From NCBI GenBank assembly GCA_036676985.1, contig JAKFBU010000039.1, positions 148,845 to 212,844 on the forward strand: a stretch of DNA of 64,000 nucleotides. The letters are read 5' to 3'. This DNA comes from Candidatus Sericytochromatia bacterium. GTDB lineage: Bacteria; Cyanobacteriota; Sericytochromatia; S15B-MN24; UBA4093. Every line of letters begins with the position of its first letter. Within the stretch, counting starts at the first letter, position 1. The position numbers were made by a program, and so were the translations under genes. Below, one piece after another: positions 4,409-18,761 of the stretch. The notes under the pieces were generated by a model. The model ran no database searches. It saw only the letters and a program-made list of their open reading frames with translations, and was not told the DNA's origin.

Positions 4409-5644
4409 CTATTTGCTCACCTTCACGAAGGTCGCCTTGATCAGGCCCAGCGCGACGTTGAGCTCCGATCCGTCGTCGCTGAACTGCATCGAGACCGTTT
4501 TCCCGCCTTTGCTGGCGCTCAGGTTCTTGGCGAACTGGGACGTGAACGAGTGCGAGAAGTCCGCGCCCTTGATGATCGAGAGGAACACGTCGACCTTGAC
4601 GTTGTCGCTCTTGCCCGCGCGCTCGAAGGTGATGCGGCTCTCGCTGCCGCCCTTGAGCTCCCAGGCGCCCCCGATCTTGTCGATGAGGGCGACCGGAGCC
4701 GCGGTCGGCGCCGGAGTGGGCGTGGTCAGCCGGTTGGCAGCCGCCGCAGCGGCGGCCGGCGGCAGGGCATTCTTGATGGAGCCGCCGGAGGTCTGGGCCT
4801 TCTTCGCCTCGGACGCGACCGCGGAGTTCGCGCCCATGGCCGACCGCAGCTTCGAACCCGACAGCGCCACCTGCGTGTTGCCCGCACCCTTGTTCGACAG
4901 GAAGGTTCCGACCTTGGTCTTGGCCACCTGCGAGCTGAGATCGGACAGTGCCGCCTGGGGCGAGTGAAGTCGGCCCAAGATCACCCGACGGTCGTCGGTC
5001 CCGAGCGAGTCACGCCGGCTGAAGGCGTCCTTGCCCGAGGAGGCGACGTCCTTGTTGTAGGGCGATCCGACCACCCAGTCCGTGTACTCCGGCGTGGGAT
5101 CGAGCTCGCTGAAGGTCTCCTTGGTAAGGGGATCCGTCCACTCGACCAGGTAGTAGTTCACGTCCCGGGTCCGGGTCGCGTAACGGTTGTAGACGGTCCA
5201 CGGCTTGTAGCCCGCCACGTCCTCGAAGAGGGAGTAGCGCGTCAGCTTGTAGGTGACCAGGAAATCGTCCTCGTAGTAGGACTTCTTGGAGTTGGGGACG
5301 TCTCCCTGGAGCACCTCGAACTTCTTGCGGGTCGTGATCTCGTCCCCGCCGTAGACGCGATCGGTCTTGCCCATCGAGATCTCGCCCTTTTCCTCGCGCG
5401 ACGTGGACACCTTGCGGCTCAGATCCCCGTCCTGGAGGAAGTAGGTGCGGTTCTTGACGTCCACCAACTGCCAGGAGCCCGAGCCGGGCTTCTCGGGGTT
5501 GGGAACGAAGGTCCTGACCTTGCGCTCCTTGACCACCAGCCAGTCGGCACCCAGGTTGGGGGCCTGGGCGAGGGCCGGCTGCACGAGGATCGAGAGCGCC
5601 ACCAGCGAGCAGGACGCCGTGCCGACGATCTGACGAATGTTCAT
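4409..5644 (-). CDS. Secreted hypothetical protein, 'family B' paralog 1
   Basis: Sec signal (ALA-Q); shares TFLSxxGxGNxxxALSGS and FVxxPxxPGxGWxLV with 10883 and 14105. Confidence 0.8.
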   Translation of the reverse strand: MNIRQIVGTASCSLVALSILVQPALAQAPNLGADWLVVKERKVRTFVPNPEKPGSGSWQLVDVKNRTYFLQDGDLSRKVSTSREEKGEISMGKTDRVYGGDEITTRKKFEVLQGDVPNSKKSYYEDDFLVTYKLTRYSLFEDVAGYKPWTVYNRYATRTRDVNYYLVEWTDPLTKETFSELDPTPEYTDWVVGSPYNKDVASSGKDAFSRRDSLGTDDRRVILGRLHSPQAALSDLSSQVAKTKVGTFLSNKGAGNTQVALSGSKLRSAMGANSAVASEAKKAQTSGGSIKNALPPAAAAAAANRLTTPTPAPTAAPVALIDKIGGAWELKGGSESRITFERAGKSDNVKVDVFLSIIKGADFSHSFTSQFAKNLSASKGGKTVSMQFSDDGSELNVALGLIKATFVKVSK

Positions 5645-5653
5645 GTTGGCCTC

Positions 5654-17119: not shown

Positions 17120-17204
17120 TCCTTCTTCAAGCAGGTTGGCTGCTGCTCATCCGGGTAGCGGTGCCGGGGCGGCGCGCTCGCCGCCCAGACACCAACCGTT
17201 GCCG

Positions 17205-18761
17205 CTACTTGGCCTGGGTCTCGGGGTTCTCGGCGAACCACACGTCCTCGGTCATGAAGCGCTTCCCGTTCTGCACGAAGTAGGACTGGATCACGTACTC
17301 GCCATGCTGGTTCTTGCGGATGGTCGGCTTGGAGCCGATCTCCGTGACGCCCAGCGACGCCAAGGTGTGCAGCTCCTTGGGCTGGACCGTCGCGTCGCGG
17401 TTGCTGTCGACCCAGACCTTGAGCGTGTCGAGGGTCTTGCCCTTGAGCGACGCGTTCTTGTGGTAGAGCTTCGACCACGTCACGTCGTCGTTCATCTTCA
17501 GGACCGACGCCAGGTTGATCTGGGTGGCCTTGTAGGCGAGCTTGTGGTAGCCGTTGGCGTAACCGATGGCGTCACCGAAGAGCGCGTGGGCGTTGATCAT
17601 GCCGTCGCCCCCCGCGGCCTTGGAGACCCGGCCGTTGGTGTCGTCCACCAGGAAGCCGTCGCCGTCGGCGTTGAGCCACTCGATGTTGCGCTTCTTGCCC
17701 TCGGCCGTGATGTCGAACCACACGGCGCCGTTGGCGACGAACTTGTTCTCCTTGAGGCGCTTCTGGGCGGTCGAGGAGCCGGTCACGCCGATCTTGCCGT
17801 CGTGGTTGAGGTCCAGGGCAATGGGCGAGTGGGTGGTCCAGCTCGAGGCGACGAGCCAGCGGGCCAGGTCACGCAGGCGAGCGGCCGACGGCTGGGACTC
17901 GACGACGTGCACCGGACCGTTGGTGGTGTCGACCCAGGTGTCGATCTTGAGGCCCGAGGGGTTGACGCCCTTGTCGATGAGCTCCGCCATCTGGATGAAG
18001 CGGCCGGCCTGGGCGTAGGAGTCGATGTTGCCCATGCCCGTCAACTTCTTGAAGGCGGCGGGGTCGTTGAGCAGCACGCTCTGGATGCCGCTGTTCTTGT
18101 AGCGGTCATAGGCGGCCTGATCGAACTGCGCCGGGTTGGTGTAGGTGACGCCGTGCGCATAGGAAATCGAGTGGGCGCCGTCCGACATGGTGTAGGTGTA
18201 CTCGCCGCCGCCGTTAAAGGCAAAGGCCTTGCGGATGTAGGCATCGAGGCTGCTGGCCCCGAGGACGTCCACCAGGGCGCTCGAGTCCTTGGCGTTGGCC
18301 AACGAGGCCATCAGGGAGACGTCGGACGCCGCGACGTTGCTCGGCGCCTTCAGCTTGCCCGAGGCGATGTCCGCCCGGATCTGCTTGAGGGCGGCGTCGA
18401 AGTTGAAGTCGTGGTAGGCCCCGCCGTCGTAGTTGTTGTTGGTCGAGGTGGGGATGCCGTACTTGGTGTAGACCTGCTGCATCTCGGCCGTGGTCATGGC
18501 CCGGTTGAGACCCACCAGCTCCGCGAAGGCCTCCTGGATGGTCGCGTCGTAGCGGCCGATGGGGCTCGCGATGTGGTTGGCGTTCTTCACGTAGCGGTTG
18601 CGCTTGAACTCGACCCAGAACCCGGGCACGCCGTTGCTGGTGCCGGGGGTGTAGACCTTGTTGGTCTCGACGACGAGTTCTTCGGCCAGGGCGGGCGAGA
18701 GCGTACCAGCGAGGGTGGCGAGTACCAGCGAGAGTGCCAGCGAGTACCGTTTCTTTAGCAT
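17205..18761 (-). CDS. Secreted protein with C-terminal SPM-like domain, 'family A'
   Basis: Start MLKKRYS after GAGGAG; signal ALA-EE; HSPIALDLNHDG...EDVWFA. Confidence 0.8.
   Translation of the reverse strand: MLKKRYSLALSLVLATLAGTLSPALAEELVVETNKVYTPGTSNGVPGFWVEFKRNRYVKNANHIASPIGRYDATIQEAFAELVGLNRAMTTAEMQQVYTKYGIPTSTNNNYDGGAYHDFNFDAALKQIRADIASGKLKAPSNVAASDVSLMASLANAKDSSALVDVLGASSLDAYIRKAFAFNGGGEYTYTMSDGAHSISYAHGVTYTNPAQFDQAAYDRYKNSGIQSVLLNDPAAFKKLTGMGNIDSYAQAGRFIQMAELIDKGVNPSGLKIDTWVDTTNGPVHVVESQPSAARLRDLARWLVASSWTTHSPIALDLNHDGKIGVTGSSTAQKRLKENKFVANGAVWFDITAEGKKRNIEWLNADGDGFLVDDTNGRVSKAAGGDGMINAHALFGDAIGYANGYHKLAYKATQINLASVLKMNDDVTWSKLYHKNASLKGKTLDTLKVWVDSNRDATVQPKELHTLASLGVTEIGSKPTIRKNQHGEYVIQSYFVQNGKRFMTEDVWFAENPETQAK

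Follow-up and report, generated by a model that had tools for sequence, protein, structure and literature searches.

In the Neisseria RTX protein FrpC, a self-processing module (SPM) cuts its own Asp414-Pro415 bond by way of an aspartic anhydride (PMC7078468), and the substitution D414A abolishes both cleavage and coupling (PMC7846742). FrpC is encoded together with FrpD, an outer-membrane lipoprotein that binds residues 1-414 of FrpC (PMC7078468, PMC3034196), and the repeat blocks typical of RTX proteins undergo Ca2+-gated folding after type I secretion (PMC7078468). To date, research on the SPM has treated it as a curiosity found in a few pathogen RTX proteins, and as what drives the NeissLock tools for protein ligation. 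Here we describe homologs of this module in a different setting, namely in a 64,000-nucleotide stretch of the genome of a Candidatus Sericytochromatia bacterium (contig JAKFBU010000039.1 of assembly GCA_036676985.1, positions 148,845 to 212,844; hereafter the window). Its minus strand carries between positions 4409 and 18761 five genes for putatively exported proteins (A1-A5), each ending in an SPM-like domain, which are arranged in three arrays that are in each case followed by a gene for a further putatively exported protein (B1-B3).

Sequence profile searches with the five A proteins against the sequences of the PDB recovered the two FrpC SPM structures with significant scores (6sjx, E = 2.9e-9; 6sjw, E = 1.5e-8), the next match being at E = 0.6. 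An AlphaFold model of A2 (34 sequences in the alignment, pLDDT 79.9, pTM 0.68) retrieved 6sjw in a Foldseek search (E = 2.4e-8, TM-score 0.67 on the target; next row at E = 0.37), and VIA-align superposed residues 294-490 of the model on the same structure with Z = 14.9 and a root mean square deviation of 2.9 Å over 151 of 179 residues (next Z = 4.3). The model matches the characteristic fold of the SPM, with two perpendicular beta-sheets, a helix-turn-helix and adjacent N and C termini, and the A modules are 26-32% identical to FrpC. The original prediction had recognized the parallel to FrpC from the sequence alone, and the agreement of profile, Foldseek and VIA-align proves that recognition correct: the C-terminal domain of the A proteins is a genuine homolog of the FrpC SPM in sequence and in fold.

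Conservation was counted over 147 aligned domains, which comprise the subfamily including the window copies, with FrpC numbering after PMC7078468. The equivalents of Pro415, D419, W451, L475 and W519 are found in all 147 domains, those of G424, G477 and E532 in 146 each, and those of D521 and D525 in 145 and 140 respectively. The position of D478 is an Asp in 119 of the 147, and that of D579 an Asp in 125 and a Glu in 15. Within this genome the W451/W519 pair and the equivalents of L475 and G477 are invariant in six copies, i.e. the five of the window and a sixth paralog on another contig; an EDVWFA motif is invariant at the C-terminal end of the module, and the C-terminal Asp of the 'port' is retained in the window copies. 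Two of the Ca2+-binding sites of FrpC are likewise recognizable. The loop of site 4 (FrpC D521-E532), with the pattern D-x-N-x-D-[AG]-x5-E, is present in all five window copies, while that of site 1 (FrpC D419-G424 plus D456), with the pattern D-L-N-x-D-G, is present in four, A2 having DLSGNS in its place; the equivalent of D456 is invariant. The likeness to the FrpC SPM thus spans sequence homology, fold, the invariant Pro of the junction, the EF-hand-like sites 1 and 4, the Trp-Trp pair and the residues of the port.

The A modules depart from FrpC at the scissile residue itself, where Asp is replaced by Ser. The junction is Ser-Pro in all five window copies as well as in the sixth paralog, with no Asp-Pro at this position. 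Because every copy has Ser-Pro and D414A abolishes the cleavage of FrpC, the Ca2+-triggered cleavage and cross-linking that had been envisaged for this system are unlikely for the window copies. In the 147 aligned domains (window copies included) the residue preceding the junction Pro is Ser in 117, Asp in 20, Thr in 9 and Cys in one. A motif scan of the best 150 of 7,723 clusters yielded a comparable picture, with 143 instances in 138 proteins (112 Ser, 20 Asp, 10 Thr and one Cys), 12 of these 150 proteins being without the motif. Among 129 non-redundant copies from the fetched loci the junction Ser is encoded by TCN codons in 79 and by AGY codons in 20, and this use of both codon families indicates that Ser itself is maintained. 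In a FastTree phylogeny of the 147 domains computed with the junction columns masked, the distribution of Asp needs 4-5 changes, versus about 19 for shuffled labels, and 14 of the 20 Asp copies form a single clade (support 100) nested among the Ser clades that hold the window copies. The Asp clade is typified by the signature NGNGKIDVTG, and the D579 equivalent is a Glu in 14 of the 20 Asp copies; among the 117 Ser-type copies the same position is an Asp in 109, and that corresponding to D478 is an Asp in 90 and an Asn in 16.

The A proteins combine this module with a variable N-terminal region (hereafter the head). Pairwise identity is 48-53% over the conserved C-terminal domain of about 205 residues, as against 24-34% in the N-terminal part; even in the closest pair, A1 and A3, it falls from 93% in the former to 60% in the latter. 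The alignment of the six copies of the domain has 55 invariant columns, and in a DNA-level comparison the five domain copies of the window are in register. The division into a conserved tail and variable remainder had been noticed previously, as had several shorter features. Thus, the T[PR]GxxxGxxGxW[VI] motif is indeed found in all five A proteins, and their N-termini, judged by eye, look like Sec signal peptides. A proposed helix motif, R..[AY]xL[VL]xxG[VI]xP, is found in none of the five in its literal form, and in four of them if its spacing is widened by two residues, A5 being the deviant. The reported lack of RTX repeats holds for all nine proteins of the region (A, B and the lipoprotein described below), which have no GGxGxD motif, and the A proteins also have no cysteines. 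In the A2 model a beta-hairpin (residues 36-66), which bears the TxGxxxGxxGxW motif, is followed by a mostly helical region (residues 70-290) and then by the C-terminal domain. Searches with the whole A2 model produced no PDB match for the fold of the head, the best rows outside the SPM being at Foldseek E = 0.37 and VIA Z = 4.3, and for the head the Atlas yielded nothing usable. Few residues of the head are invariant, and they make up no set of catalytic appearance. Pfam and NCBIfam scans of all nine proteins gave nothing above any cutoff, with weak EF-hand matches at the DLNxDG loop. In architectural terms, then, the A proteins differ from FrpC in having the module at the extreme C-terminus rather than internally, in possessing a Sec signal and in being devoid of RTX repeats.

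The three transcription units had been delineated as A-A-B, A-B and A-A-B, and all eight minus-strand open reading frames are confirmed at their coordinates. The first unit comprises A1 (17205-18761, 518 residues), A2 (15644-17113, 489 residues from its ATG) and B1 (14105-15634, 509 residues), the last of which starts 9 nucleotides past A2. The SPM-like domain of A1 (17208-17828; DNA copy 17529-17828) begins at the Ser-Pro junction, and that of A2, which is 100% identical to the 489-residue protein P0001, lies at 15647-16243. The second unit consists of A3 (12304-13887, 527 residues; domain at 12307-12927), whose nearest paralog is A1, and B2 (10883-12280, 465 residues). The third is formed by A4 (7161-8417, 418 residues; domain at 7164-7766), A5 (5654-7135, 493 residues; domain at 5657-6268) and B3 (4409-5644, 411 residues), which again starts 9 nucleotides past the preceding A gene and is the most divergent of the B proteins. 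The gene starts proposed at 18761 and 13887 each fit an ATG preceded by GAGAGGAG. A1 and A3 share a 98-nucleotide upstream element (18797-18894 and 13921-14018; 77% identical) with a TATAAC box and the GAGAGGAG ribosome-binding site, and A4 is preceded by a partial, weaker version of it (8420-8470). A promoter scan of the region revealed no sigma-70-type site, and an Rfam scan of positions 4000-30000 gave nothing credible, the upstream element likewise being without an Rfam match; the AT-rich TATAAC element before A1, A3 and A4 is probably a shared promoter or regulatory site. Strong terminator-like hairpins end two of the three units, one after B1 (14051-14080; 13 pairs, 12 of them G-C) and one after B2 (10840-10865; 11 G-C pairs). 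From these hairpins and the shared upstream elements, an operon structure of three units plus a lipoprotein gene is supported as a fair description of the locus. This last gene (8540-10744, minus strand), which lies between the second and third arrays and codes for 734 residues with an LLTGC lipobox, was overlooked in the original prediction along with the adjacent tad locus (see below), although its eight A and B reading frames were sound.

The B genes follow every A array of the window, as had been stated. Outside this genome, when two coordinate tables are read together, a module match lies immediately upstream, on the same strand, of 14 of the 16 B loci with E <= 1e-10. Over 47 genomes of the class B was detected in 9 of 9 genomes of family f1 and in 1 of 8 of f4, with one marginal match elsewhere, and a word-based search recovered five close homologs; B is thus confined essentially to one family. 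A B profile found no match among PDB sequences (E up to 10), FrpD not being listed. The weak calycin/FABP-like rows obtained for the C-terminal beta domain of B (E >= 7e-3, TM-score about 0.4) come from a poor model and are not relied on. A Lys-rich spacer in B1 was considered as a conserved acceptor for cross-linking and ruled out, the spacers of B2 and B3 having no such Lys run. Separately, B2 contains at 11154-11288 an 18-nucleotide tandem repeat coding for a low-complexity AAANTA repeat, and contigs of two other sequencing runs skip 54 or 72 nucleotides of it, so that the repeat number varies between strains. Elsewhere in the genome (contig C1 of G000, 62720-63292, plus strand) a 715-residue open reading frame has a match (E = 9e-29) to the middle of the B profile and is located about 15 kb away from the gene for the sixth A paralog.

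The lipoprotein has a lipoprotein-signal match at residues 1-23 and nine close homologs; it belongs to no known family, and its Atlas neighbours are unnamed hypothetical clusters. It has no relative among PDB sequences at E up to 1, where FrpD is again not listed. Its gene follows an A gene in the loci L008, L009 and L012, and the locus tags of its homologs lie 6-7 genes from those of A homologs. By position, B and the lipoprotein are conserved partners of A. This arrangement recalls the FrpD-FrpC pair, in that here too a lipoprotein gene, along with a further exported partner gene, is kept beside the genes for SPM proteins. However, the gene order differs, and FrpD does not surface in PDB sequence searches with either the B profile or the lipoprotein.

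The family to which the module belongs is both larger and better catalogued than had been supposed. The system was originally regarded as undescribed, yet all 23 homologs of A2 carry the Pfam tag PF26745.1, a membership that reflects precomputed tags on the homologs rather than a score of the window proteins against the family model; the domain is thus already catalogued and widespread, although a literature search found no mention of the accession. The PF26745 proteins with ALTTAQ repeats (P0020-P0023) have the same module, with a Thr-Pro junction, but are furnished with other N-terminal parts. A profile of the six modules retrieved 7,723 clusters at E <= 0.001, 1,119 at 1e-10 and 232 at 1e-30. 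The best 150 of these 7,723 are mostly proteins of 250-600 residues that end with the module, few of them having RTX motifs, which contradicts the premise that the module is normally embedded in RTX proteins of type I secretion systems. A scan of public genomes ranks the Sericytochromatia first, followed by Myxococcota, Bdellovibrionales and many Proteobacteria, a ranking biased towards the Ser-Pro form because the search pattern contained Ser-Pro. In the class of the window's organism, the module is found in 23 of 47 genomes, all of one order (9 of 9 genomes in family f1, 4 of 8 in f2, 1 of 1 in f3 and 8 of 8 in f4), and in none of the 20 genomes of the other three families. Relatives have up to 14 module matches per genome, often in tandem.

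To the junctions of these relatives we devoted a separate survey of 40 loci. It covered every locus in genomes G010-G013 and G016-G019 and, for G027, those with the stronger matches, and left out G014, G015 and the remaining genomes. Junctions were found in 38 of the 40 loci. Among the 59 junctions from nine relatives, 34 are of the Ser type and 25 have the canonical Asp-Pro, as opposed to none of six in this genome. The arrays ahead of B can be entirely of the Asp type, as with D-D-D in G011:C32, D-D-D-D in G012:C62 and D-D in G016:C14 and G017:C14, entirely of the Ser type, as with S-S in G017:C119 and G018:C91, or mixed, as with S-D in G017:C51 and D-S in G010:C498, the latter from the genus of the window. 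Two genomes have Ser copies alone, this one (6 of 6) and G013 (11 of 11). Apart from the junction, the Asp-type paralogs resemble the window A proteins, with the same signal peptide, the same DRVE...TxGxxNGxxGxWVE hairpin and arrays ending in B. The combination originally ascribed to this locus, in which a Sec-exported, non-RTX protein with a C-terminal module and a canonical Asp-Pro precedes B, is thus found in close relatives, but not in the window itself.

Several module proteins depart from this architecture. The sixth paralog of this genome (locus L001, 6801-7898, minus strand; contig C1 of G000) is a 365-residue protein with no obvious signal peptide and a Pro/Ala-rich N-terminus; its junction is Ser-Pro, and its third EF-hand loop (DKDGDGKL) is intact. 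L020 has comparable Ser/Asp pairs of module proteins, also without a signal peptide. On the Myxococcota/Bdellovibrionales contigs L024, L027 and L028 there are proteins of about 670-690 residues without a signal peptide, in which a head weakly like that of A2 is joined through a PPPPPP linker to a module of the Asp-Pro type, after which comes an additional tail of about 75 residues; a gene for a Ser/Thr kinase lies nearby.

A complete tad/flp pilus locus (20233-28895, minus strand) is situated upstream of A1 on the same strand, encoding three flp pilins, tadE, cpaB, cpaC, tadG, tadZ, tadA, tadB and tadC. Its head is formed by three tandem flp-type pilin genes (28221-28895, minus strand; 57, 57 and about 60 residues) with near-identical mature parts. 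Between tadC and A1 lie two plus-strand genes, coding for a Gly/Met-rich protein with a signal peptide (19562-20197) and a deaminase-like protein with a HAEE...PCxxC pattern discerned by eye (18979-19440). The tad locus is syntenic with the A arrays in three of the four genera of the family. On the other side of the arrays, two adjacent plus-strand genes for NHL-repeat beta-propeller proteins (2051-4353) converge on B3. Farther away, the G+C content of positions 36000-44000 is 0.49-0.59, as against 0.63-0.71 elsewhere in the window, and this stretch may be an acquired island.

The sequencing runs that hold the region are labelled soil and groundwater, the habitat labels of runs with a small share having been left out. 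One soil RNA library (X20) provides three mismatch-free contigs of 151, 232 and 149 nucleotides, all inside A3; apart from short low-complexity matches, the rest of the 14.7 kb has no cover in this run. These contigs hint, if weakly, at transcription of A3.

Considering these observations together, it is reasonably probable that the A arrays define a lineage-specific, Sec-exported, Ca2+-folded surface or envelope protein system, the copies of which in this genome do not clip and link. Under this proposal the A protein would be unfolded at the Ca2+ levels of the cytoplasm and would then be exported by the Sec pathway, after which the module, drawing on the Trp-Trp pair and on at least those two EF-hand-like sites that are conserved, would fold around Ca2+ and clamp the junction between head and module. 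A Ser-type junction would be left uncut, with the consequence that the head stays attached. A, B and the 734-residue lipoprotein would then probably build an assembly in the envelope or at the surface, possibly linked to the Tad pilus. By analogy with FrpC, the Asp-type paralogs of the relatives are predicted to cut themselves in the manner of that protein. The proposed course is reminiscent of the RTX repeat blocks, which share the disorder at cytoplasmic Ca2+ and the folding once outside that we suggest for A. Unlike them, the A module has a different fold, a Sec signal in place of type I secretion and no nonapeptide repeats.

A number of points weigh against this proposal. The second Ca2+ loop of FrpC appears rebuilt in the window copies, where site 2 (D462-E474) has an 8-residue insertion and no Glu at position 12, and the loop of site 3 (D499-D511) is absent in all five, being present in the sixth paralog; with two of the four Ca2+ sites of FrpC not intact, dependence on Ca2+ is not assured. 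The model of B2 is poor (pLDDT 57.8, pTM 0.26); it consists of long beta-hairpins and a disordered spacer of low complexity, together with a helix and, at the C-terminal end, a small beta domain. The evidence from RNA is limited to the contigs of a single run, and libraries of this type may contain DNA; the other run with an RNA-Seq label probably represents DNA. As for the Tad pilus, the link is a lead only, as the synteny lies within one family and two plus-strand genes separate the loci in the window. Lastly, the supposition that the Ser-type copies do not cleave draws on the result with FrpC D414A and on chemistry, and a junction limited to the nucleophiles Ser, Asp, Thr and Cys in 147 of 147 domains, with the port residues kept, would equally be expected if the junction were chemically active. 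Nucleophiles at every junction and the retention of the strain-making residues leave room for a second, hydroxyl-based chemistry.

According to this alternative, the Ser/Thr/Cys-Pro junction would be active: Ca2+-driven strain would promote attack by the side chain, and the protein would be clipped and perhaps linked by a route unlike the anhydride of FrpC, for example by an N-to-O acyl shift at the preceding bond, the resulting ester then undergoing hydrolysis or transfer to an amine, with B, the lipoprotein or neighbouring surfaces as possible targets. Agreeing with it are the absence of any residue other than a nucleophile at the junction, the retention in the Ser-type copies of Pro415 and of the port residues responsible for the strain on the FrpC bond (PMC7078468), the preservation of Ser across both codon families, and the presence of Ser- and Asp-type copies as neighbours in the same arrays ahead of B, as if they were interchangeable. 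However, Ser, Thr and Asp are classical capping and turn-forming side chains, so that a structural reason suffices for the restriction, and the Asp copies belong mainly to one clade (14 of 20, support 100) with its own signature, which speaks against free swapping. Furthermore, Ser is unable to form the five-membered anhydride of FrpC, and a literature search, covering the accessible parts of the relevant papers, found no precedent. We therefore regard an active Ser-type junction as improbable. According to another idea, the locus would be a polymorphic system of toxins or effectors, in which A is the variable effector and B its immunity or delivery partner. This has in its favour the tandem divergent paralogs (relatives have as many as 14 domain matches in a genome), the variable heads beside a conserved module and the partner gene conserved downstream. 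Yet this part of the original prediction finds no support, the variable part being N-terminal and free of catalytic motifs, and B being itself a large exported protein. Neither Pfam nor NCBIfam provides a toxin, enzyme or immunity family (E up to 1 for toxin and immunity families), and the head has no PDB fold match (best Z 4.3) or usable Atlas hit and no invariant set of catalytic appearance. The A:B ratio is 2:1 or more rather than 1:1, and B proteins of 411-509 residues, exported and rich in low-complexity sequence, are unlike small cognate immunity proteins. A toxin function is accordingly very unlikely.

A different proposal, compatible with the favoured one, is that A, B and the lipoprotein are accessory parts of the Tad pilus, serving as adhesins, matrix or anchoring components. 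This is suggested by L008, L010 and L011, in which tadZ/A/B/C, A, B, A and the lipoprotein gene follow each other on one strand, and by G011:C32 and G012:C62, in which about 6 kb separates the arrays from an orthologous tadA (81-82% identical), the same neighbourhood being seen in the window. In G016-G018, however, the arrays and the best match to tadA fall on separate contigs. All the genomes concerned come from one family, and an inherited gene order would suffice to explain the synteny; the two plus-strand genes intervene in the window, where the arrays have their own promoter-like elements and terminators, and the signal peptides of the A proteins are of the ordinary kind and no prepilin leaders. 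Such an accessory role is therefore possible, though we hold it with some doubt.

Whichever role applies, the locus and its relatives present the SPM fold as the tail of ordinary Sec-exported proteins of environmental bacteria. The module family itself is already known from the FrpC SPM and PF26745; what appears to be new, as judged from sequence comparisons, is a Ser-Pro, Sec-exported version in A...B arrays, and in the accessible text of the SPM literature, including PMC7078468, PMC7846742, PMC12538545 and PMC3034196, we met neither a Ser-type nor a Sec-exported SPM. The two natural forms, Asp-Pro and Ser-Pro, stand side by side in the same operons and constitute a natural experiment on the role of the junction residue, while the Asp-type modules from non-pathogens offer a pool for protein engineering. 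If the Ser form is inert, a catalytic module would have been reused as a Ca2+-dependent structural domain. If instead the second chemistry were true, the Ser type, which makes up the majority of the closest 147 domain clusters, would represent the commoner and so far unseen form of Ca2+-triggered self-processing, and self-processing would act on Sec-exported, non-RTX proteins. For the little-known non-photosynthetic cyanobacteria themselves, these arrays give an initial foothold in a family of exported proteins that is large and expanded and is possibly tied to adhesion by the Tad pilus.

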